Positions 6,464 through 17,037 of a stretch of 64,000 nt of DNA are shown here, in pieces. The DNA is from a virus: IMG/VR virus record IMGVR_UViG_3300029957_000007, positions 1-64,000 of that record; one strand, 5' to 3'. Made by a program: the position numbers and the translations under genes. A model generated the notes under the pieces. That model saw only the letters and a list, made by a program, of their open reading frames with translations. It was not told the DNA's origin and ran no database searches. The stretch's first letter is position 1. Each line of letters starts with the position of its first letter.

Positions 6464-7069
6464 ATGTTCTCAAAATACCACGGACCAAATAGGATCGGAC
6501 CGAACCTCGTCAGAAGAGCAAGGCGCAGTGATGATGCATTCGAAGATCTGTTGAAGATCGCAGATCGACTCATCATTGCCTTTGCTCTCCGCAGTGGAGT
6601 TCGTGGTGAGAGCATCGATGATCTATTGCAAGATGGACGCATCGTTGCTTGGAACTGCGTTCAGAACTTCGATCCAAAGGCTGGAGCAAAGTTCACAACA
6701 TTCTTGGGTACGTCACTCAAGAACAGGTTCAATCAACATCACTACAGTCAATACACCTACAAACGAAAAGTTCGATCGTCTAGCGTGTCACTGGACGATA
6801 TGAGGGAAGACAAGCCACAGATGATCAATGGCATTAGTGATCATAAGAGCGATGATCAATTCAATCTTAAGAACACTGAGATCTTCCTCTCAGAGTTGAT
6901 GGACATCCTTCCAGAAGAAGGAAGGAAGGTCTGCCAACTGATGATGAAAGGCCTGACACAAGAGCAGATCGCAAAGAAGATGCATCTCACGAAAGCAAAG
7001 GTCAGATCCATCTTTGACCGTAAAGTTCGTGATCGCATCATCGATGCACAACAGAACAATTTCCTTTGA
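6464..7069 (+). CDS. RNA polymerase sigma-70 family sigma factor
   Basis: Region 2 DDLLQDGRIVAWNCVQNFDPKAGAKFTTF; region 4 HTH EGRKVCQLMMKGLTQEQIAKKMHLTKAKVRS. Confidence 0.85.
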   Translation: MFSKYHGPNRIGPNLVRRARRSDDAFEDLLKIADRLIIAFALRSGVRGESIDDLLQDGRIVAWNCVQNFDPKAGAKFTTFLGTSLKNRFNQHHYSQYTYKRKVRSSSVSLDDMREDKPQMINGISDHKSDDQFNLKNTEIFLSELMDILPEEGRKVCQLMMKGLTQEQIAKKMHLTKAKVRSIFDRKVRDRIIDAQQNNFL

Positions 7070-7234
7070 AGTGCAGCATTGGATCAGGCTTTCCGGATAC
7101 TATATCTTCGAGTTTGATTCACTCACTTCACAGGTCTACTGACGGAGGTGGACTATCGGTTTATGACGGCGAGCAGAAACGAGGCTGATCTACGTCAACT
7201 TTCACTTTTCAATCATCACACAGAAGGAGCCACC

Positions 7235-8200
7235 ATGGCCAAGGATAAGAAGAAGGACGAGGAACTGGAAGAGGACGAGAAGGACATCAAGAAGAAGGGC
7301 AAGAAGAAGGAAGATGAAGAGGACGAGGACGACGAGAAGCCGAAGAAGAAGGGCAAGGCAAAGGACGACGACGAAGATGAGGACGAAGACGAGGAGGAAG
7401 ACGAGAAGCCTTCCAAGAAGAAGTCCAAGTCTGACGACGAAGACGAAGATGATGATGACGATGACGACGAGAAGCCTTCAAAGAAGAAGTCCAAGTCCGA
7501 TGACGAAGACGAGGATGAAGACGAGGATGAGGATGACGACGACGATGAGGACGACAAGAAGTCCAAGTCGAAGAAGAAGTCCAAGTCTGACGACGAAGAC
7601 GAAGATGAAGACGAGGATGACGACGACGAGGAAGATGAAAAGCCTTCCAAGAAGAAGAAGTCCAAGTCCGATGAGGACGATGAAGACGACGACGAGGATG
7701 AGGACGAAAAGCCCAAGTCCAAGAAGAAGTCGAAGAAGTCCGATGACGAAGACGAAGATGAGGAAGACGAGAAGCCTTCCAAGAAGAAGTCCAAGAAGTC
7801 CTCTGATGACGATGAGGATGACGAGGATGAGGACGAGGAGAAGTCCTCCAAGTCCAAAAAGAAGTCCAAGTCCAAAGATGACGAAGAGGACGAGGACGAC
7901 GAGGAAGACACCCCCAAAGGAAAGAAGGAGAAAACCATGGCTAAGAAAGAGAAGGACGTGAAGAAGAGCAAGAAGGAGAAAGAGGAGAAGAAGGAGAAGA
8001 AGAGCAAGCGAGGCAGCGGTGGTGAGCGACTGGTGAAGCATTGGTCGGGAGTCGCTGAGCGGCTGGCCAAGCGCTTGGCCAAGAACGCCAAGAAGCTGAC
8101 CAGCGAGCTGAAGAAGGTGAAGGACGACAAGGAGTCCAGCAAGGCGCTGAGCTCTTTGGGAGAGTCCTTCGAGAAGGCTGCCAAGGTCTTGGCGGACTAA
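7235..8200 (+). CDS. D/E/K low-complexity protein with C-terminal helical domain (paralog of 56716-56988)
   Basis: AAGGAG SD before ATG 7235; alternating poly-D/E and KPSKKKSKS blocks; C-terminal RLAKRLAKNAKKL...KVKDDK. Confidence 0.85.
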   Translation: MAKDKKKDEELEEDEKDIKKKGKKKEDEEDEDDEKPKKKGKAKDDDEDEDEDEEEDEKPSKKKSKSDDEDEDDDDDDDEKPSKKKSKSDDEDEDEDEDEDDDDDEDDKKSKSKKKSKSDDEDEDEDEDDDDEEDEKPSKKKKSKSDEDDEDDDEDEDEKPKSKKKSKKSDDEDEDEEDEKPSKKKSKKSSDDDEDDEDEDEEKSSKSKKKSKSKDDEEDEDDEEDTPKGKKEKTMAKKEKDVKKSKKEKEEKKEKKSKRGSGGERLVKHWSGVAERLAKRLAKNAKKLTSELKKVKDDKESSKALSSLGESFEKAAKVLAD

Positions 8201-8217: not shown

Positions 8218-8248
8218 AGGAGAGGCGCCGAGAGGCGCCTCTCCTTTT
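8218..8248 (+). terminator. Rho-independent terminator
   Basis: 12-bp stem aggagaggcgcc / ggcgcctctcct, GAGA loop, followed by a T-run. Confidence 0.85.
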
Positions 8249-8306: not shown

Positions 8307-9047
8307 ATGTTCTTCTACGAAGCCTTCAGCACTTTCGATGGAGCCTATCGATCTGTGTTGAGAGACATCCTAACGAAGGCAAAGTACAGTCCTTCGTCTA
8401 GAGGCCGAAAGTTCTTTGAGATCCCACAGTACACATTCGTACTGGAGAATCCAATGAACAACGAAGTCTCAGCGACACCGCGAGGCTTCAAGAGAGAATT
8501 CGCTCAGAAGTTCTTTGAGTGGATCTGGAATGGTGAGTCAGACATCACCAAGCTCTTTGGTGTGAATGACAACGCCAAGAAGTTCAGCGACGAAGATATG
8601 AAGGGACGCAACACAGCATATGGACCTCGCTTTGTCGAACAGAGAGAGCGAATCATTGCTGAGCTGAAGAGAGATCCAGACACCAGACGAGCTGTGATCA
8701 ATATCCTCTATCCAATAGACTCAGAAATGCTGGAAGACTCGTTCAATGGGCTCACAAAGGTCGAGTACCCATGCACGATCGCACTGCAGTTCATGATCAG
8801 AGACAAGCAACTCAATCTTCATGTTCTGATGCGTTCGAACAACGCAGTCACAACGCTCTGCTATGATGTGTACAACTTCACACACATCCAAATGGCAGTA
8901 CTGCAGAGACTTCAGAACGAAGGAATGGAGATCGATCTCGGACATTACTATCACTCCGCAGTTTCGATGCACATCTTCGAAGATGAGATGAGCTTAGCGA
9001 AGAAGATCTTGAACTGGTACGTTCAAAGACAAGGCATCAAAATCTGA
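8307..9047 (+). CDS. thymidylate synthase-fold enzyme, dCMP hydroxymethylase-like (Asp at the pyrimidine-specificity position)
   Basis: AYGPR, DPDTRRAV, YPCT (catalytic Cys), LQFMIR, RSNNAVTTLCYD, YYHSAVSMHIF. Confidence 0.85.
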   Translation: MFFYEAFSTFDGAYRSVLRDILTKAKYSPSSRGRKFFEIPQYTFVLENPMNNEVSATPRGFKREFAQKFFEWIWNGESDITKLFGVNDNAKKFSDEDMKGRNTAYGPRFVEQRERIIAELKRDPDTRRAVINILYPIDSEMLEDSFNGLTKVEYPCTIALQFMIRDKQLNLHVLMRSNNAVTTLCYDVYNFTHIQMAVLQRLQNEGMEIDLGHYYHSAVSMHIFEDEMSLAKKILNWYVQRQGIKI

Positions 9048-9056
9048 GGAGGAAGC

Positions 9057-10127
9057 GTGCTCAAACTAATGGTTGGCAGCAACTACGACCCAGCGTTGCC
9101 TGAGGCTTTCAGAGCTCTCAACGAGAAGTATGCTGGTAATGGCATACAGATCCATGAGATCTATGGTTCAGTGCAAAGCGTTAAGGTGTTTGGTTCAGCG
9201 CGTCCTGACTTCCGTGTTCCTAAAACGGATGTTGAGACGTTCGGCAAGACGGTGAAGCAATTTGTTGATGCAGGAATCTTGGTGAACTACACCGAGAATA
9301 TTCCGATCGTCAAGAAGAGCGACATCGACAAGGTGTTGATCAAAGAGAAACTCGACATGCTGAAGAGCTTTGGCGTTGGGCGATTAACGATCAGCCATCC
9401 TCTTGCGATGGAGTTGGTTCAAGAGCTGTGCGACATTCCGATCGAGATCAGCACCATCTATCGAGCGAATACAGCGTACCAGCTGCGTGAGTTAAAGCGA
9501 CGGGCACCCAACATTAACAAGATGTGCTTGGATGTTGCTCAGAACCGGAACTTCAAACTCATCTTCAAGCTTCTCGAGGAAGCAAAGAAGCTCGGTATCG
9601 ACATCGAACTTCTGGCCAATGAGCTTTGCATTGCTGACTGCGCTGATCGAGTGCAGTGCTACAACGATCATGCTCAAGTGGCTGATGAGAAAGAAGCAGC
9701 TCAACAGAAGAGTTATCCGATGGGACGGTGCACTTATCTTCGCAATGCGATGAGTCCAGTTGAATGGACTCGTGCTCGCTTCATCTTGCCTCAGACGATG
9801 AAGTTCTACGAGTCAGTCACTGGCATCGATCATTTCAAGATCACTGGTCGTACTCACCCAACCAAGTACATCCTTTGGATCGTTGAGGAGTACTTGAAGC
9901 AAGACTTCCACGGTAATCTGCTTGGTCTTTGGGCTGATGTGAAGAACATTCAGCGCATTGCAAGAGGAGCAGAGGACTTCTTAGAACCTAACTTCTACAT
10001 TGACTCAGAACCATATGGCAGCGAGTTCATTCGCAGATATTTGAATGACCCGATGCTCATCGACTTGGATCTTGATCATGAGTATGACATACTCAACAAG
10101 ATCTTGGAGACGTCCCTACAGAAGTAG
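9057..10127 (+). CDS. U32 peptidase-family protein (probable Fe-S hydroxylase, UbiU/V/TrhP/RlhA-like)
   Basis: IEISTI, ELLANELCIADCADRVQC, YPMGRC, FIxPQ, FKITGRT (U32 KIEGR-like). Confidence 0.75.
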   Translation: MLKLMVGSNYDPALPEAFRALNEKYAGNGIQIHEIYGSVQSVKVFGSARPDFRVPKTDVETFGKTVKQFVDAGILVNYTENIPIVKKSDIDKVLIKEKLDMLKSFGVGRLTISHPLAMELVQELCDIPIEISTIYRANTAYQLRELKRRAPNINKMCLDVAQNRNFKLIFKLLEEAKKLGIDIELLANELCIADCADRVQCYNDHAQVADEKEAAQQKSYPMGRCTYLRNAMSPVEWTRARFILPQTMKFYESVTGIDHFKITGRTHPTKYILWIVEEYLKQDFHGNLLGLWADVKNIQRIARGAEDFLEPNFYIDSEPYGSEFIRRYLNDPMLIDLDLDHEYDILNKILETSLQK

Positions 10128-10151
10128 GGCACACACTGACGGAGGTATGTA

Positions 10152-10490
10152 ATGAGCAAGAAAACCAAGAATGGCTTCAAGAAGCTTGAGAGCGGTGATC
10201 TGTCGTTCCGCTTCGAGCACTTTGAAGGTGGAGTGATCAAAGGTGGAGATGAGGTCAATGGTGACACGTTCACAGCTAGGATCTCGATGAGTGGAGCTGG
10301 TGAGGCTCCCGGTGTTTACAAGTCGGAGAAGAAAGCAAAGCAGCACATCATCGACTTCGTGAAGAAGCAGTTGAAGAGGACCTTGAAGGAATTCGAGAAG
10401 CGGTTGAAGGAAACCAAAGCTGATTTGAAGAGCGATGAGAAGGAAGTCGAGTTCCAGCAGAAGCTCCTCAAGAAACTGAAGAAGGTGTAG
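10152..10490 (+). CDS. hypothetical protein
   Basis: GGAGGT SD, 112 aa, C-terminal coiled coil. Confidence 0.75.
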   Translation: MSKKTKNGFKKLESGDLSFRFEHFEGGVIKGGDEVNGDTFTARISMSGAGEAPGVYKSEKKAKQHIIDFVKKQLKRTLKEFEKRLKETKADLKSDEKEVEFQQKLLKKLKKV

Positions 10491-10494
10491 AGAC

Positions 10495-10956
10495 ATGAAG
10501 GACAAGAATGCTCTTTGGACTGATCTGCTGCTTCGCTTTGCAGCACAATCAGAATGCAAGTCGAGGCAGATCGGAGCAATCATCCTTGTAGAAAACCGTC
10601 TGGTCTCACAAGGGTGGAACAGTCCGCCACCTCATGTGAGCACAGACGACTGTTTGCGGTGTCAGTGTAAAGACAAGCCGCATGAGTCAGGAAAGAACCT
10701 TGACAATGCGATCTGCATTCATGCAGAACAAAACGCTATCATGAATGCTGTATACAACGGCATAGCATTGAACGGCGCTGAGATGTGGTGCACCAATAAG
10801 CCTTGCGATATCTGTGCTGCAATGATCTGCCGGTCTGGGATCAAGACAGTCATATACCTCAATGACTACCCATCTCAATACGCAGACATGTTCTTTGCTA
10901 AGTCGAACATCCGGGCGTTCTCAATCGAACAATACTCCAAATGGAGCAGTCAATGA
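10495..10956 (+). CDS. dCMP deaminase (ComEB-like)
   Basis: QIGAII, GWN, HAEQNAI, PCDICA Zn-binding motifs. Confidence 0.9.
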   Translation: MKDKNALWTDLLLRFAAQSECKSRQIGAIILVENRLVSQGWNSPPPHVSTDDCLRCQCKDKPHESGKNLDNAICIHAEQNAIMNAVYNGIALNGAEMWCTNKPCDICAAMICRSGIKTVIYLNDYPSQYADMFFAKSNIRAFSIEQYSKWSSQ

Positions 10957-12248
10957 AGATCCTTTACGCAGTGCAAGTGTCCAACACAACGAAGATGCCA
11001 GACGGTTCTATGAAATGGTTGCTTCGCAATGATGCATGTGTCAACATCATGCGTGGCATCTTGATCGCTGTGTTGAAGAAGAAGCCTCAATGGCAGTTCG
11101 TCGTGAAGTTGCCAAGGTTGAAGGACATCGCAGACATGAAGTCGTATGCTGAGCTCTTCCCTGAAGAGATTCGCGACAACATCATGATCTATGAGGACGA
11201 CATCCCGATCTCACCTGTGACCAGTCGCTTCCACTTCGACTTCTTGCGTAGAAGGAAAGAGTTCCTCATCAATCCATTCCTTCATGGCATTGATGTCATG
11301 ATCAATGATGAGAACACTCACACAATGAGCTGGAAGGTCGTGTTCCACGATCTCGGCTTGAGCATTCCGATGATCAGTACCAATTACTTCTTCGACAATC
11401 CTATTGGGAAGAAGACACCGAAAGGTGTTTGGTACTTCGATCGTCAAGTGGAGAGCTTCATTCACTCTGAGATCACAGCTTTCCAATGTGAAGCTACGAA
11501 AGATGAGACGATCAGAGTCCTTGATCAGCATCTCACAAGAAAAGGCGATTACACAATGCATTGGAAGCCTTCGATCTGGGGCATTGGATGCAGCGCCACT
11601 GAAGTGCTTGACAAGAGGATCCAAGCTTTTGAATTTCATTCTCTTAGCTTGAGACCAATCATCTATTTTGGCAATCGAATCACAGAGACCGCTGGTCGAT
11701 ATACCAACTGGGATGATTTTGCTTATGGCATTGGAAAGTTGCTAGCGATCAAAGATCACACTCAATTCTCTGCTTACATGCTTGATCCAACTCGTAAAGT
11801 GACACGAGAACAACAAAACGTCATTGATGACGGTTCAGATCATCGGATCACTTTGCTTCATCTCAACAGAGAGCAGTATCTTGGTTTCATTCGCGGTCAG
11901 CACATCAGCTGCAACCTCTTCGTCAATGAGGTACATGGTGGCGTGACTCACGCAGAAGCCATGTTGGCTGGCAACTTGATCATCTGCCCTCGAGTCAACA
12001 ACTACAAGATCAAGATCGAGAAATATGCGAAGAACTATCCGCTCTTCGTGAAGCACAAAGGCTTCAAGATAGATACCACTGACCTTGCGAAGAAGATGCA
12101 TTTGGCTCTCACCATGCCGAAGGCTGAGCAATTGAAGTGGAGGAAAATGCTTGTCAAAGCTGCAATGGAGAACGAGACGTATGAGTCAGCGGCTCCACGC
12201 ATCATCGCTGATATCACAACTGCCAGCAAGATGGAGCTGATGCCATGA
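10953..12248 (+). CDS. GT-B fold glycosyltransferase (GT4-like)
   Basis: C-terminal IIYFGNR...EVHGGVTHAEAMLAGNLIICP resembles the GT4 E-x-FG-x3-EAM-x2-G-x-P motif; start at ATG 10953. Confidence 0.7.
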   Translation: MKILYAVQVSNTTKMPDGSMKWLLRNDACVNIMRGILIAVLKKKPQWQFVVKLPRLKDIADMKSYAELFPEEIRDNIMIYEDDIPISPVTSRFHFDFLRRRKEFLINPFLHGIDVMINDENTHTMSWKVVFHDLGLSIPMISTNYFFDNPIGKKTPKGVWYFDRQVESFIHSEITAFQCEATKDETIRVLDQHLTRKGDYTMHWKPSIWGIGCSATEVLDKRIQAFEFHSLSLRPIIYFGNRITETAGRYTNWDDFAYGIGKLLAIKDHTQFSAYMLDPTRKVTREQQNVIDDGSDHRITLLHLNREQYLGFIRGQHISCNLFVNEVHGGVTHAEAMLAGNLIICPRVNNYKIKIEKYAKNYPLFVKHKGFKIDTTDLAKKMHLALTMPKAEQLKWRKMLVKAAMENETYESAAPRIIADITTASKMELMP

Positions 12249-12424
12249 GCTTCACAGTGACGACGATCAAAGGAACTGACATCGTCAAAGCTGATATGGT
12301 GGATGTGAAAGATGGTATTCTTGAGTTTCAAAAAGAGACCAAGAGTAGCAGTCTTCGTTTTGGAAATTACAAAGTAGTTGCATCGTACAATATGAAGCAC
12401 GTCATCAAATGGGTGGAGAGATGA
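12245..12424 (+). CDS. small hypothetical protein (59 aa, not in ORF track)
   Basis: MSFTVTTIKGTDIVKADMVDVKDGILEF...WVER; ATGA overlaps at both ends. Confidence 0.65.
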   Translation: MSFTVTTIKGTDIVKADMVDVKDGILEFQKETKSSSLRFGNYKVVASYNMKHVIKWVER

Positions 12425-12696
12425 TAAACTCAATTCGTATTTCACTTCACAATCTTTTAGTTCGATTGGCGATGTGGATTCATCCAAGTAAACAGACGGC
12501 GCAAGAAATGATATTGGATCTTCGAAGAGAGCGATTGATCTTTGGTGAATCGTTTTATACGATCGTAAAGATCGATCCATACAAAGTGTTCATCAAAGCT
12601 TCAATCAACAATGACAAGGTACCTACTACTGCTGAGATCGCCGATATCTTTAGTGGCGCTGGGACACGACACATTTATGAGAGGGTAGAACAATGA
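12421..12696 (+). CDS. hypothetical protein
   Basis: ATG 12421 overlaps the upstream stop. Confidence 0.6.
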   Translation: MINSIRISLHNLLVRLAMWIHPSKQTAQEMILDLRRERLIFGESFYTIVKIDPYKVFIKASINNDKVPTTAEIADIFSGAGTRHIYERVEQ

Positions 12697-13265
12697 AGAT
12701 CATATTTGAAGGTGCAGACAAAACAGGCAAGACGACATTGGCCAATCTTCTCTCGAAGAAACTTGGCATGAAGATGTTCTATCCTCCGAGAGCAACTGAC
12801 AACGTGAGCTTCCCGGAAGGTGGAAAGATAGAGCACTACTTCTTAGGCATCAACAAAACAATGCTTGAGATGTTCAAGATGTTCGACAACTTCATCTGCG
12901 ATCGTTTCTTCATATCGGACGCAGTGTACTCTAAGATCTACGGAAGAACACAGAACATCAGCACGCCAATGATCACAAGCATCGAAGGCGATGTCTTAGT
13001 CGTTGTCACAACGTGCTCTTCTGCAACGAGAATGGAACGATTGATCGCAGAAAGTCCAGACGACACTGGACCAGAGTTTGATGAACATCTTCATGGTGTG
13101 ATGTTCACCGAGTACGTGAAGTTCTATGCTCCAAAGTTTCCAGCCAACTTCAGGTTCTTGATCGTTGACACTGGTCGTCACAATGAGAAGCAATGCATTG
13201 AGATGATAGAGGCAAAGATCAAGTTCATAAGGGCAATGCGCCTTAACAAGAAAAAGAAGTCGTGA
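12693..13265 (+). CDS. deoxynucleoside monophosphate kinase (thymidylate kinase-like)
   Basis: MKIIFEGADKTGKTT P-loop, ICDRF motif. Confidence 0.85.
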   Translation: MKIIFEGADKTGKTTLANLLSKKLGMKMFYPPRATDNVSFPEGGKIEHYFLGINKTMLEMFKMFDNFICDRFFISDAVYSKIYGRTQNISTPMITSIEGDVLVVVTTCSSATRMERLIAESPDDTGPEFDEHLHGVMFTEYVKFYAPKFPANFRFLIVDTGRHNEKQCIEMIEAKIKFIRAMRLNKKKKS

Positions 13266-13825
13266 ACTTAAAGCTGATCAACGCAAAAGTCGAACTGTGT
13301 AATAAATGTAAGCTGTCACCAAACAGAGGTCTTGGTTATGGTGATGGAAAATCAAAGATCATGTTCATCGCTCAAAACGCTGGATGGCAACCGAAGTCTC
13401 GCACAGCAGACATCATCCCATTCGGTTTAGATGATGGTGGCAACAACAGTGGTAGAACACTCGTCAAGTTGTTCAAAGATGTAGAGATGAATGCACCATA
13501 CTACATCACCAACGTGATGAAGTGCCCGACACCAGACAATAGGCCTCCTACAGATGATGAGATCTTTCGATGCATAGACTTTCTTCGCTTAGAACTAGAG
13601 AGTCAGAAGCCGAAGTTGATCTTCGTCATGGGCAACGTGGCTAAGCACTCCTACAACTTCTACATGAAGCGGTTGTTGAAGAAATTGTTGGATGATGGTC
13701 ACTGCTGGTTTGTGCATTACATGTGGCATCCACGAGCAGTGATGAGGAATCCAAAGCTTTACGCACAATGGAAAACTGAGTTCGATGCGTTCTGGACTCA
13801 GTACAAACATCTGGTGAAACAATGA
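13262..13825 (+). CDS. uracil-DNA glycosylase superfamily protein (family 4-like, divergent)
   Basis: CNKCKL, IMFIAQNAG, YITNVMKCPTPDNRPPTDDEIFRC, KPKLIFVMG, WHP. Confidence 0.85.
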   Translation: MNLKLINAKVELCNKCKLSPNRGLGYGDGKSKIMFIAQNAGWQPKSRTADIIPFGLDDGGNNSGRTLVKLFKDVEMNAPYYITNVMKCPTPDNRPPTDDEIFRCIDFLRLELESQKPKLIFVMGNVAKHSYNFYMKRLLKKLLDDGHCWFVHYMWHPRAVMRNPKLYAQWKTEFDAFWTQYKHLVKQ

Positions 13826-16800
13826 GCTTTGTCAACTTGCATATACACAGCGAGAACTCCTTACTCGATGGAGTTGGAACGATCAAAGAGATCGTGAAGA
13901 AAGCCAAAGAGCAAGGTTCACCTGCCATTGCTGTTACTGATCACGGTAATGTCAATGGTGCTGTGCAGCTCTATCAAGAATGCAAGGAAAACGGCATCAA
14001 ACCGATCTTTGGATCAGAGTTCTATTTCGGTTATGATGCTGAGAAGAAAGAGAAGAATACCGGCAACATGCACCTCATCGTGCTGGCTAAGAACAAGCAA
14101 GGCTTTGAGAATCTTCTGCGTCTCAACGGATGGGCCCACAAACACGGGTTCTATCGCAAGCCTCGCATAGACTTCGCTCATTTGAAAGAGTTGAAGGAAG
14201 GATTGATCGTTCTCTCTGGTTGTACTTCTGGTGTCATCGCCAAGAAGCTGATTGCCAAAGATTACGATGGAGCTTTAGAATGGGCAGAGAAATTCAAGAA
14301 GGTCTTTGGTGAAGACTACTATCTTGAGATGCAAGTGCACGACTACAAAGAACAAAGGGTCGTGAACAAAGGCATCATCAAACTCAGCGCAGAGTTGAAG
14401 ATCAAAACAGTCATCACCAATGATGCTCACTATGTCAACGAGGATGATGGTCTCCTCCAAGATGTGATGGCACTCATCAAGCAGAAGAAGACGTGGAAGG
14501 ATCGAAAGGAGGCTCTGGAAAGAATCAAACGTGGTGAGCCATCCAAAATGCCTTGGGAGCTTGGCTGCAAGCAACTGTGGATGAAGAGCGAAGACGAGAT
14601 GTTAGCGAGTTGGAAGGAATGGCATAAGGACTACATGGATCGTAAGATCTTTGAACGTTCTGTCGCTGAGACTGCGAAACTCTCGGAGAAGATAGACAAT
14701 GTCGCTATCGATTCATCTTACAAGTTTCCAAACATCGACTCTAAAAAGAGCGTTGAGGATACCTTTCAAGAAATGCTTGATGAAGGCTTTAAGAAACGAG
14801 GCTTCAAAGATTCAAGCAAAGATGAGAAAGCAAGAATCAAGTATGAACAGAAGATCCTTCAGGATTTAGGACTCCTGCCATACTTCGTGATCTTGGCCGA
14901 TGCAATCAAAGAAGCAAGGAAGCGTGGGATCATGGTTGGCATTGGTCGTGGTTCAGCCGCTGGTTCTCTCATCTGCTACTGCCTCGGCATCACAGGTGTC
15001 AATCCTCTGATCCACGGTCTGATGTTCGAAAGGTTCATCAGTCCAGCCAGAAAAGACATGCCTGATATTGACGTGGACTTCGAATCTGAACGCAAAGGCG
15101 AGATCGAAGAATACCTCATCAGCAAGTATGGTGAGGATAAGGTTGGACACGTTGCAACATATGGCATGATGCAGTTGAAGTCCTCCATCAAAGACGTTTC
15201 ACGTGTGATGGGTGGAGATCCAAAAGCTACCAACGATTTCACGGCTGTCTTCCCGAAAGACATTGACAAAGAAGTGAAGACGAAGTATCCGAAGCTTTCT
15301 GATTTTAAGGAAGCCTTCGCTGAGCACGTCGACAAGTTCTTGTCAGCACACGAGAAACATGAGAAGATCCTCAAAACAGCTTGGAAGCTCAAGGGTAGGA
15401 TTCGGCACATCAGTCAACATCCAGCTGGGATCGTCATCACTCCTAAGCCATTGGATCACTTGGTTGCGGTACAGCGACACGGTGGTAAGCTGTTGATTGG
15501 CTGGACAGAAGGTCAGAGGAAGGAACTGACTCCTTTCGGCTTTGTGAAGTATGACGTGTTGGGCATCAAAACGCTCGACATCTTGAAGAGAGCTTTGCAG
15601 CTTATCAAGAAGCGTCATGATAAAGACATCGACATTGAGACCATTCCGCTGACAGACAAGAAAGTCTACAAGAAAATGAGCAAGGGACTTTCACTCGGTT
15701 CCTTCCAGTTTGAAACTGACATCATGGCGATGATGCTCAGAGAACTTAAACCGGATTGCTTCGATGATCTTGCAGCTCTCAATGCTCTCGATCGACCTGG
15801 TCCGTTGCGAATGAAGATGGACAAGGTCTTCTATGATCTCAAGCATGGTGTTGAGAACAAGAATACGAAGAAGATGGTGAAACAGATCATGCGTAAGATG
15901 TTCCCTGAAACATACGGCGTTGTGCTGTATCAGGAACAAGTGATGATGGCTGCAATGCAGCTGTCAGGATTCTCAGTCATTGAAGCTGATGATATGAGAA
16001 GGACGATCACGAAGAATGTCGGTAAGTTCGACAAGCCAGAAGTCAAGAAACTGCTTGATGAAGTGAAGCATAAGTTCATCAGTCGTGCAACAAAGAAGAT
16101 CGGCGAGTCAGATGCTAAGTTCGTTTGGGAGATCATCTTCAAGTTCACTGAGTACGGCTTCAACAAGGCTCACTCAGTTTGCTATGCGATGATTGGCTAT
16201 CAATGCATGTATTTGAAAGTCAACTACCCAATCGAGTTCTACACAGCGATCCTTCAATGGTCCAGTGGCACTGACACTGAGGTCTACATTGAAGACGCTT
16301 TGAAGAACGGCATCAAGATCTTGCCAGTGGATATCAACAAGTCGAAGCTTCGCTTCAAGCCAGAAGGCGATGGCATCAGATATCCATTGGGTCACATCCG
16401 TGATGTGAAGAAAGCAGCCGTGAGGATCGTTGAAGAGAAATACAAAAGCTTCGACGACTTCCTCAAGAAGATAACAGGAAAGCGAGTCAACAAGAAGTCG
16501 ATCATGTCACTCATCAAGGCTGGTGCATTTGACTCGATGGATCCAAAGATCAAGCGTGACAAGCTTGCCTATCTCTACACTAAGATGAAAGCCAAACCAA
16601 AAGAGAGAGAGGCTATTGAACGAGAGAGGTGGGATGTTTCAAAGCTCCTGAAGATGGAGAAAGAAGCTTATGGCTTTGAATTCTCTGTCCATCTGTTCGA
16701 TGATATGCTCGTCAAGCTTGGAAAAGATCACGGCCTAGAACATTTAGAAAAGGTTTTCGAGAATGACGCCGGTTACCAAGCTCACGTTGGTGGTATCATT

Positions 16801-17037
16801 CGTTCAGTGAGAGAACATCGAGCCAGAAATGGTGTGATGGCCTTCGTTGACTTTCAATTCGGAAAGAAGAAGGCTTCACTTACGATCTTTGGTGATCGAT
16901 GGCAGACGTACAAACACTTCGTCAAGCCAGGTGCATTGTTCTATGGAGATCTCACAGTTTCAGAATATCGTGAGAAGAAGAACTTCGTGCTTTCTGGGCG
17001 TGGTGGAGCAGATAACTACATGAAAGTTGTAGATTGA
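13822..17037 (+). CDS. dnaE: DNA polymerase III alpha subunit (PolC/DnaE family C)
   Basis: PHP LHIHSENSLLDG/TDHG/TNDAH, GRGSAAGS, PDIDVD, HPAG, KYDVLG, YQEQVM, YGFNKAHS. Confidence 0.97.
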   Translation: MSFVNLHIHSENSLLDGVGTIKEIVKKAKEQGSPAIAVTDHGNVNGAVQLYQECKENGIKPIFGSEFYFGYDAEKKEKNTGNMHLIVLAKNKQGFENLLRLNGWAHKHGFYRKPRIDFAHLKELKEGLIVLSGCTSGVIAKKLIAKDYDGALEWAEKFKKVFGEDYYLEMQVHDYKEQRVVNKGIIKLSAELKIKTVITNDAHYVNEDDGLLQDVMALIKQKKTWKDRKEALERIKRGEPSKMPWELGCKQLWMKSEDEMLASWKEWHKDYMDRKIFERSVAETAKLSEKIDNVAIDSSYKFPNIDSKKSVEDTFQEMLDEGFKKRGFKDSSKDEKARIKYEQKILQDLGLLPYFVILADAIKEARKRGIMVGIGRGSAAGSLICYCLGITGVNPLIHGLMFERFISPARKDMPDIDVDFESERKGEIEEYLISKYGEDKVGHVATYGMMQLKSSIKDVSRVMGGDPKATNDFTAVFPKDIDKEVKTKYPKLSDFKEAFAEHVDKFLSAHEKHEKILKTAWKLKGRIRHISQHPAGIVITPKPLDHLVAVQRHGGKLLIGWTEGQRKELTPFGFVKYDVLGIKTLDILKRALQLIKKRHDKDIDIETIPLTDKKVYKKMSKGLSLGSFQFETDIMAMMLRELKPDCFDDLAALNALDRPGPLRMKMDKVFYDLKHGVENKNTKKMVKQIMRKMFPETYGVVLYQEQVMMAAMQLSGFSVIEADDMRRTITKNVGKFDKPEVKKLLDEVKHKFISRATKKIGESDAKFVWEIIFKFTEYGFNKAHSVCYAMIGYQCMYLKVNYPIEFYTAILQWSSGTDTEVYIEDALKNGIKILPVDINKSKLRFKPEGDGIRYPLGHIRDVKKAAVRIVEEKYKSFDDFLKKITGKRVNKKSIMSLIKAGAFDSMDPKIKRDKLAYLYTKMKAKPKEREAIERERWDVSKLLKMEKEAYGFEFSVHLFDDMLVKLGKDHGLEHLEKVFENDAGYQAHVGGIIRSVREHRARNGVMAFVDFQFGKKKASLTIFGDRWQTYKHFVKPGALFYGDLTVSEYREKKNFVLSGRGGADNYMKVVD

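Follow-up and report, generated by a model that had tools for sequence, protein, structure and literature searches.

Positions 8307 to 13825 (+ strand) of the viral record IMGVR_UViG_3300029957_000007 (IMG/VR) hold nine co-oriented, mostly overlapping open reading frames (ORFs) that run into the polymerase gene dnaE, and the phage most likely replaces the cytosine of its DNA with sugar-decorated 5-hydroxycytosine (5hoC). The window analysed here is the first 64 kb of this 122,758-base record, which is estimated to be 76% complete; "G" numbers denote viral records, "L" numbers denote loci, and G000 is the genome that holds the window. With a probability of roughly 70%, the cluster encodes a glycosyl-5hoC pathway in which a homolog of thymidylate synthase (TS) is an O2-dependent hydroxylase of deoxycytidine monophosphate (dCMP). 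Because the window contains all four conserved non-sugar components of the published glycosyl-5hoC system, it belongs to that kind, here in a phage with a DnaE polymerase and without arabinose genes. The initial annotation had put forward a candidate new pathway; the glycosyl-5hoC pathway was published in 2025-26 (PMC13326640). The chemistry that the annotation proposed, in which C5-hydroxylated dCMP is passed to a kinase, incorporated and then glycosylated by a GT4-like enzyme with a GT-B fold, agrees with the pathway established for RB69, DLP3, HY126 and RL38JI (PMC13326640).

The cluster and its immediate surroundings contain the following features.

8230 to 8243, + strand: terminator-like hairpin followed by a T-rich tail, within the 106-base gap before the cluster (consensus scan, pattern match only)
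8307 to 9047, + strand: TS-superfamily protein, 246 amino acids, predicted 5-hydroxy-dCMP synthase; homolog of RB69 gp48, the HY126 protein and DLP3 gp80
9057 to 10127, + strand: Peptidase-U32-family protein of Fe-S type, 356 amino acids, homolog of RB69 gp50
10152 to 10490, + strand: small lysine-rich ORF, 112 amino acids; sub-threshold DUF5659 match only
10495 to 10956, + strand: dCMP deaminase, 153 amino acids (PF00383, E 1e-18; phrog_174, E 5e-34)
10941 to 12248, + strand: GT-B glycosyltransferase, 435 amino acids, predicted DNA 5-hydroxycytosine glycosyltransferase for the base-proximal sugar (predicted fold and profile match)
12245 to 12424, + strand: small ORF, 59 amino acids, from the ORF list; no Pfam, PHROG or NCBIfam match
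12409 to 12696, + strand: small ORF, 95 amino acids, from the ORF list; no Pfam, PHROG or NCBIfam match
12693 to 13265, + strand: Tmk-like P-loop nucleotide kinase, 190 amino acids (PF02223 P-loop match; phrog_761, E 4e-19)
13262 to 13825, + strand: protein resembling family-4 uracil-DNA glycosylases (UDG), 187 amino acids (PF03167, E 4e-16; TIGR00758), with a 4-base overlap with dnaE
13822 to 17037, + strand: DnaE-type family C replicative polymerase, 1071 amino acids, with PHP, DNA_pol3_alpha, finger and HHH_6 domains (phrog_405, E 5e-285)

The gene row running into dnaE is real, co-oriented and mostly overlapping as first described, but it comprises nine genes rather than six, with three small ORFs interleaved. 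Adjacent genes are separated by gaps of 4 to 24 bases or share one of six overlaps of 4 or 16 bases, the dnaE junction included; nearly all genes of the window lie on the + strand. The row is not a chance arrangement, since the order TS-like, U32, one ORF, glycosyltransferase, UDG-like and DnaE recurs in L018, L019 and L030, although the proteins are just 27-37% identical. Pfam, PHROG and NCBIfam support all names in the cluster except those of the 435-residue protein and the three small ORFs. Neither megablast with the cluster nor tblastn with the 435-residue protein returned a match among 50,697 phage records.

By homology, the TS-like protein would hydroxylate dCMP at C5 with flavin and O2, the Tmk-like kinase would convert the product to the diphosphate and host nucleoside diphosphate kinase would form the triphosphate. 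The phage DnaE would then incorporate 5-hydroxy-dCTP in place of dCTP, and the GT-B enzyme would add a sugar to the 5-hydroxyl on the DNA. The sugar donor would be a host nucleotide sugar, possibly tailored by a short-chain dehydrogenase/reductase (SDR) epimerase/dehydratase whose gene lies in another part of the genome. The dCMP deaminase and a separate canonical ThyA would supply dTTP, as in T4, and a PRA-PH/MazG-like pyrophosphatase beside ThyA may serve as the dCTPase.

Residue signature of the TS-like protein

The TS-like protein matches the thymidylate synthase family PF00303 weakly (47 bits). Its best matches in the PDB are 9iqu and 9iqc (E 2e-26), with weaker matches to the CMP hydroxymethylase MilA (1e-19), T4 dCMP hydroxymethylase gp42 (1.5e-6) and true TS (about 1e-4 or weaker). 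The sequence of 9iqc matches, at 100% identity, that of the HY126 (Escherichia phage) TS homolog, which has been reported as a flavin-bound hydroxylase (Lee et al., PMC13326640). The protein is also 31% identical to RB69 gp48 (E 2e-33), and Sphingomonas phage PAU gp182 (32.5% identity) is among its most similar isolate homologs.

Two motifs, EYPCT and RSNN-x7-D, carry the informative positions E143, C146, H147T, D169N and N177D. The EYPCT motif, which aligns with RB69 and HY126, contains the catalytic Cys146 of the TS superfamily. Two features of dCMP specificity are present, namely the Asp at the N177 site that ends RSNNAVTTLCYD and a Glu three residues before the Cys, at the L143 site. At position 169 the protein reads RSNN, compared with RS.D in 44RR gp42, an SPO1-type enzyme and the genome's own ThyA; D169 is thus retained by a hydroxymethylcytosine (hmC) enzyme (Aeromonas 44RR gp42), the SPO1-type hydroxymethyluracil enzyme and ThyA. 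The same signature as in the window is found in RB69, HY126, Thanatos-2, Acinetobacter AM101, a Rhizobium Pootjesviridae phage, Sphingomonas PAU and Tenacibaculum PTm1. The TS homologs RB69 gp48 and DLP3 gp80 convert dCMP to 5-hydroxy-dCMP with bound flavin and oxygen taken from O2 (Lee et al., NAR 2026, PMC13326640). An Asn in place of D169, combined with N177D and an acidic L143 site, marks this activity; D169N is diagnostic in that it separates the hydroxylases from hydroxymethylases and TS, and all nine further D169N homologs tested produced 5-hydroxydeoxycytidine (5hodC; PMC13326640). By this published signature, the TS-like protein is predicted to be a 5-hydroxy-dCMP synthase of the flavin/O2-dependent type.

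Two other functions of the TS-like protein were weighed against this assignment. The cluster could be an ordinary thymidylate module in which the deaminase forms dUMP, the TS homolog dTMP and the Tmk-like kinase dTDP, with the U32 protein and the 435-residue protein as passengers. The database names (thymidylate synthase, dCMP deaminase, thymidylate kinase) fit such a module, and many phages have one. However, the TS homolog, with its 47-bit score, has Asp at N177, Asn at D169 and Thr at H147, a true ThyA (393 bits) is encoded at G000:110420-111307, and the supposed passengers are conserved together with TS homologs of this type in RB69, HY126, Thanatos and viral loci, which makes a thymidylate module highly improbable. 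In the second alternative, the protein is a dCMP hydroxymethylase of the T4 type and the DNA contains glycosylated 5-hydroxymethylcytosine. The Asp at N177 and the acidic residue at L143 are likewise found in hmC synthases and MilA, and a GT-B enzyme could act on hmC equally well. Against it, the hmC enzyme 44RR gp42 and the Enterococcus 9183 homolog, the latter with hmC-type residues, keep D169 where the window protein has Asn, the HY126 5-hydroxy-dCMP synthase is a far closer match than T4 gp42 (E 2e-26 versus 1.5e-6), and the glycosyltransferase is a profile homolog of the family found in 5hoC clusters. We regard hydroxymethylation as improbable.

Several points weigh against a glycosyl-5hoC pathway. 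A maximum-likelihood tree built from TS homologs had too little resolution to position the TS-like protein, so the synthase assignment rests on the signature residues and the best PDB match. Related viral TS-like proteins in L011 and L018 have Ser at position 169, which means that the signature is not absolute. A dUTPase-type dCTPase gave no match in the 76%-complete record, and the PRA-PH/MazG-like protein at G000:109776-110507 (PF01503, E 7e-9) is a weak call as a dCTPase. The virus itself is known from a metagenome only.

The TS-like proteins with Ser169 (L011:8886-9917 and L018:7236-8255) are encoded next to U32 genes, read RSQS...D and bear a C-terminal extension of about 100 residues; the sections of Lee et al. 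consulted (PMC13326640) describe no signature of this kind.

Glycosyltransferase, kinase and sugar supply

The name glycosyltransferase, given to the 435-residue protein at the outset, found no match in Pfam, PHROG or NCBIfam, yet it is confirmed by the GT-B fold of the AlphaFold (AF2) model (mean predicted local confidence, pLDDT, 93). Foldseek aligned the model with sucrose-phosphate synthase (6kih), MshA (3c4q) and OtsA (E about 1e-12). The protein has 81 relatives among 1.84 billion representative proteins, and a few members of the family match Glycos_transf_1 or Glyco_transf_4. Profile comparison by hhalign (alignment A5 versus A2) related the family to glycosyltransferases of the type of RB69 gp46:47 and HY126 XAN60474 with a probability of 99.2% (E 2.5e-19, 316 columns). 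Pairwise BLAST against RB69 gp46 and gp47 was not significant; detection by profile and not by BLAST indicates a distant relation to the RB69 gp46:47 family. The structures 6kih and 3c4q have been reported as matches for RB69 gp46:47, and 6kih for DLP3 gp79; both phage enzymes were predicted to be the first, base-proximal DNA arabinosyltransferases (Lee et al., PMC13326640). Another family, of 329 residues, is found beside U32 in loci that lack a TS homolog. It was considered as a divergent TS, which was ruled out by the synteny of L016 and by BLAST to HY126 XAN60474; the family consists of glycosyltransferases of the RB69 gp46:47 type.

The kinase is 30% identical to RB69 gp45 over 82 residues (E 2e-5). 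A Tmk-like "nucleotide kinase" flanks the synthase and the glycosyltransferase in DLP3 (gp78), RB69 (gp45) and RL38JI (gp214) (Lee et al., PMC13326640), and the same kinase type occurs in about 10 of 37 viral U32 loci. In the window, synthase, Tmk-like kinase and glycosyltransferase are encoded together within 8307-13265. The kinase is predicted from these relationships to phosphorylate 5-hydroxy-dCMP, and possibly dTMP as well.

The genes that mark the arabinosyl subtype are arabinose-5-phosphate isomerase (API, with a SIS domain), a kinase-uridylyltransferase and a HAD phosphatase. No SIS or NTP_transferase match was obtained in G000, and tblastn with RB69 gp51-55 gave no match. Since genes for UDP-arabinose are missing, the cluster is not assigned to the arabinosyl subtype; its sugar is probably one other than arabinose, and a different adduct is likely. 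The early observation that the window has no sugar-synthesis genes holds, but an NAD-dependent SDR sugar epimerase/dehydratase, the only sugar gene seen, is encoded outside it at G000:111680-112759. This gene closes L039 (G000:109776-112759), which also encodes the PRA-PH/MazG-like nucleoside triphosphate pyrophosphatase, the canonical ThyA and a 138-residue ORF. L039 could thus provide a candidate dCTPase and a candidate enzyme for tailoring the sugar donor.

The U32 protein and its loci

The protein encoded immediately downstream of the synthase gene matches Peptidase_U32 (PF01136) with 23.1 bits, just above the cut-off of 22.4, and phrog_5757 with E 3e-51. Its AF2 model (pLDDT 94) is a TIM barrel whose top Foldseek match is the U32 structure 5d88 (E 1.4e-7). 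The link to RB69, a phage with arabinosylated cytosine, that the initial annotation had drawn is borne out, as the protein shares 36% identity with RB69 gp50 (E 1.5e-55) and 222 isolate phages, among them HY126, Serratia LC53 and Shewanella Thanatos-2, encode a homolog. The phage family comprises 69 relatives (alignment A1). Across 43 sequences, no substitution occurs at C191, C201, C225, N188, E189 or R198, and C157 is retained in 42 and E184 in 37; C195 is kept within the motif NE[FL]C..C..R..CY, giving five conserved cysteines in all. The Glu and Cys residues essential in TrhP (E162, C170 and C177) and RlhA have conserved counterparts here, and the cysteines form a putative binding site for a 4Fe-4S cluster. 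The cysteine spacing (E-x6-C-x3-C-x5-C) differs from that of the Escherichia coli paralogs. Many phage U32 proteins, among them RB69 gp50 (L054:5517-6686; C-x4-C-x3-C-x2-C) and several in A1, carry a Cys-rich tail at their C-terminus that could be another site for a metal or Fe-S cluster; the tail is absent from the window protein and its closest relatives.

The U32 enzymes known so far catalyze O2-independent, prephenate-dependent hydroxylations. RlhA forms 5-hydroxycytidine in 23S rRNA (C2501), and TrhP forms 5-hydroxyuridine (ho5U34) in tRNA and is paired with the O2-dependent TrhO (PMC6599085). UbiU/V carry out an anaerobic hydroxylation of quinones for which prephenate supplies the oxygen (PMC6747719, PMC10990095). 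In E. coli, the pairs TrhO/TrhP and UbiI-H-F/UbiU-V place a U32 protein beside an O2-dependent enzyme with a like product, as is proposed for the window. More speculatively than the pathway itself, the window U32 protein would provide a second, O2-independent, Fe-S- and prephenate-dependent route to the same 5-hydroxypyrimidine nucleotide, one that would keep the DNA modified while the host grows without oxygen. To our knowledge, no U32 protein has been shown to use a deoxynucleotide or DNA as a substrate.

The surroundings of U32 genes bear on this proposal. A single-sequence scan of IMG/VR gave nothing, and an alignment-based scan gave 37 loci. In all 37, U32 lies in a replication or nucleotide-metabolism module: DnaE and/or a UDG-like gene is present in 22 loci, a Tmk-like kinase or deaminase in 14 and a TS-like gene in eight, and glycosyltransferases of the two related families are found in 21. 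Eleven U32-bearing records reach at least 90% completeness, and seven of them lack a TS homolog (searched with PF00303 and a custom profile at E<=1). Each of these seven encodes a glycosyltransferase within about 3 kb of U32, and six a Tmk-like kinase gene or domain. The 48.9-kb G019, a complete and terminally repeated record, has the order primase, one ORF, kinase, glycosyltransferase, U32 and DnaE; among 25 of the 32 Pfam families listed for its non-structural half, there is no TS, methyltransferase, dioxygenase or other base-modifying enzyme that could provide an acceptor for the glycosyltransferase. Four of the seven (G011, G019, G027 and G034) and the window genome have neither NTP-transferase nor SIS genes, which indicates that U32 is not tied to sugar synthesis.

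Some of these loci have further features. G019 (L061-L063) also encodes a protein with an OGG_N domain (8-oxoguanine glycosylase, N-terminal) and a dUTPase. In L004, L005 and L006 (for example L004:6648-9971), DnaE is accompanied by a radical-SAM/SPASM protein, a glycosyltransferase of the 435-residue family, a small ORF, a fused Tmk-like kinase-dCMP deaminase and U32, and these fragments contain no TS-like gene. L010 has a radical-SAM gene and a glycosyltransferase near DnaE. The radical-SAM genes beside glycosyltransferases hint at a further, different modification of base or sugar. In the large, near-complete records of L014 (5342-6994) and L022/L037 (5231-7051), an RB69-type glycosyltransferase and a Tmk-like P-loop domain form one protein of 550-606 residues, followed by SIS, NTP-transferase/APH kinase, a 200-residue protein and U32; these genomes encode no TS homolog.

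The distribution of U32 may also follow host physiology. Among the matches listed, the hosts of isolates with U32 are Enterobacterales or Shewanella and no others, which are facultative anaerobes. No U32 gene was found genome-wide in the 5hoC-type phages AM101, RHph_I1_9, PAU and PTm1, whose hosts (Acinetobacter, Rhizobium, Sphingomonas and Tenacibaculum, respectively) are obligate aerobes. The TS-less records with U32 and glycosyltransferase, together with this host-oxygen pattern, support an O2-independent hydroxylase but do not prove it.

Glycosyl-5hoC could also be made with the U32 protein in a redox or accessory role, as a sugar or heterocycle reductase, as a flavin-reducing partner of the synthase or in tailoring of the attached sugar. 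RB69 gp50 appears in Lee et al. just in a table, as 'sugar or heterocycle reductase', and records of the BASEL collection name the U32 protein 'putative enzyme involved in UDP-arabinose biosynthesis'. In RB69 and eight viral loci, U32 abuts an NTP-transferase/kinase gene, usually with SIS as well. Under aerobic conditions the RB69 TS homolog and the kinase suffice for 5hodC in DNA, the TS homolog being the only hydroxylase required (PMC13326640). However, U32 is present without sugar-nucleotide genes in the window genome and in complete G011, G019, G027 and G034, and the seven near-complete TS-less genomes have no TS homolog for it to assist. In addition, the cluster of Acinetobacter phage AM101 is syntenic with that of RB69, arabinose-type genes included, and lacks U32, which is therefore probably not needed for that sugar pathway. 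An accessory role is less likely than not, and somewhat less likely than the hydroxylase role considered below.

A role in RNA is a further alternative, in which U32 is a TrhP/RlhA-type gene for modification of host or phage tRNA or rRNA that stands beside DNA genes by coincidence. RNAs are the only known nucleic-acid substrates of U32 proteins (PMC6599085). Against this, the window protein has neither the Peptidase_U32_C domain nor the RNA-binding extensions of RlhA and TrhP, matching only PF01136 and ending about 90 residues past the barrel, which places it in a separate phage U32 subfamily and not among the RlhA/TrhP orthologs. Moreover, U32 is embedded among replication and dNTP genes and stands beside a DNA glycosyltransferase and kinase in 22 of 38 loci. 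A coincidental RNA-modification gene is very unlikely.

The initial annotation had taken U32 as the hydroxylase of the pathway. For the tested relatives this is displaced by the flavin/O2-dependent TS homolog; the idea of a base hydroxylase stays alive, and the comparative data strengthen it. We hold tentatively, at somewhat less than even odds, that U32 adds a second hydroxylase, one without need of O2, for a deoxypyrimidine nucleotide or DNA, by analogy with its cellular relatives. The phage U32 proteins (that of the window, RB69 gp50 and about 70 metagenomic relatives) may then be the first O2-independent, prephenate/Fe-S hydroxylases that act on deoxynucleotides or DNA, yielding 5-hydroxy-dC or 5-hydroxy-dU. 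In phages like that of the window, U32 might back up the O2-requiring flavin enzyme in anaerobic infection, and in small DnaE phages with just kinase, glycosyltransferase and U32 it might be the sole route to the glycosylated base.

The sufficiency of the TS homolog in air, the table entry for gp50, the NTP-transferase/kinase neighbors and the missing C-terminal extension, all described above, tell against a hydroxylase role for U32. The phage family profile also matches RlhA and TrhP weakly (21 and 18 bits), and the host-oxygen contrasts involve few lineages that are not phylogenetically independent, with host physiology taken from general knowledge. The discussion by Lee et al. of other routes to pyrimidine hydroxylation makes no connection to gp50 (PMC13326640). 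The Thanatos paper does not mention the U32 gene, and no link between phage U32 and DNA hydroxylation was found in the literature searched, outside of which lie the reports on HY126 (He et al.) and Serratia LC53.

Flanking genes and relation to known systems

The UDG-like gene, initially counted with the modification chemistry, goes instead with the DnaE replicase module of many loci. Its PDB relatives are the family-4 UDGs 4zbx and 1ui0. The four Fe-S cysteines (CxxC, KC, RC) and the HP of motif B are kept, and motif A, GE[AG]PG, reads AQNAG; the scores fall far under the NCBIfam equivalog cut-offs. UDG-like genes adjoin DnaE in many U32 loci, sometimes apparently as fusions, and phrog_4335 matches both proteins. 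The UDG-like protein is probably a partner in the DnaE replicase module and a putative glycosylase. Nothing supports the suggested formation of 5-hydroxy-dU through the dCMP deaminase, which by analogy with T4 cd is more simply explained as a supplier of dUMP for the canonical ThyA.

Upstream, the hairpin at 8230-8243 probably delimits the transcription unit on its 5' side. No sigma-70-like promoter is conspicuous (scan count 5 versus 12 expected), and the early-gene box ACTCACTCA is absent upstream of the cluster and is overall not more frequent than by chance. A sigma-70-family factor with regions 2 and 4 is encoded two genes upstream of the cluster (6464-7069, + strand), and this phage factor may explain the absence of a host-type promoter before 8307. 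Directly upstream of the cluster, positions 7148-8200 (+ strand) encode a 350-residue protein in which runs of acidic residues (D/E) alternate with basic blocks resembling KPSKKKSKS over nearly the whole length; it ends in a short helical tail and has no family match. AT and GC skew are extreme in this region, and the opposite strand contains long shadow ORFs.

The closest known systems are the arabinosyl-5-hydroxycytosine clusters of RB69 (gp45-gp55), HY126 and Shewanella Thanatos (Straboviridae). They have in common with the window the TS homolog (31% identity), U32 (36%), the Tmk-like kinase and a first glycosyltransferase from the same distant family, and these four components occur together in RB69, HY126 and Thanatos-2 as they do in the window. 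In these clusters as in the window, the genes adjoin those for a replicative polymerase and a recombinase; RB69 has the order polymerase, API, NTP-transferase/kinase, phosphatase, U32, gp49, synthase, glycosyltransferase, kinase and uvsX. Compared with these clusters, the window exhibits several differences. Its polymerase is a family C DnaE instead of the T4-type family B enzyme, the API, the bifunctional kinase/uridylyltransferase and the HAD phosphatase are missing, the glycosyltransferase has 435 instead of about 300 residues, and the genes come in another order, with a dCMP deaminase and three small ORFs between them.

The core trio of 5hoC-type TS homolog, glycosyltransferase and Tmk-like kinase is shared with Acinetobacter DLP3/AM101, Rhizobium RL38JI-type phages and Sphingomonas PAU; the window differs from AM101, RHph_I1_9, PAU and PTm1 in having U32 next to the synthase. 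In PAU (L068; JQ362498.1, 132242-138913), gp182 has the full 5hoC-synthase signature and lies between proteins of 385-410 residues and one of 180 residues, and this region adjoins genes for dTDP-glucose 4,6-dehydratase and 3,5-epimerase. PAU may carry 5hoC decorated with a deoxyhexose, of which the literature searched makes no mention.

The glucosyl-hydroxymethylcytosine system of T4 (gp42, gp1, gp56, cd and alpha/beta-glucosyltransferases) follows the same logic, in which a TS-superfamily enzyme acts on dCMP and the product is phosphorylated, incorporated and then glycosylated. Both phages also have a dCMP deaminase and a true TS for dTTP. In contrast to the folate-dependent hydroxymethylation in T4, flavin/O2-dependent hydroxylation is predicted for the window, with a Tmk-like kinase in place of gp1; the glycosyltransferase family and the polymerase also differ. 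Relative to RlhA and TrhP, which target the C5 of pyrimidines and have the U32 Glu and Cys motif residues in common with the window protein, the latter is a single-domain protein with another Cys spacing.

Taken as a glycosyl-5hoC system, the cluster extends this modification beyond T4-like and Pootjesviridae phages to a large DnaE phage, whose family C polymerase would have to accept 5-hydroxy-dCTP. It also draws attention to a U32 gene that is conserved in many such clusters and left unexplained by the literature searched. Because the 5-hydroxy-dCMP synthase needs O2, how gut and sediment phages keep their DNA modified under anoxic conditions becomes a testable question, one that matters for how phages evade restriction and CRISPR, for phage therapy where oxygen is absent and for the range of reactions that U32 hydroxylases can catalyze.

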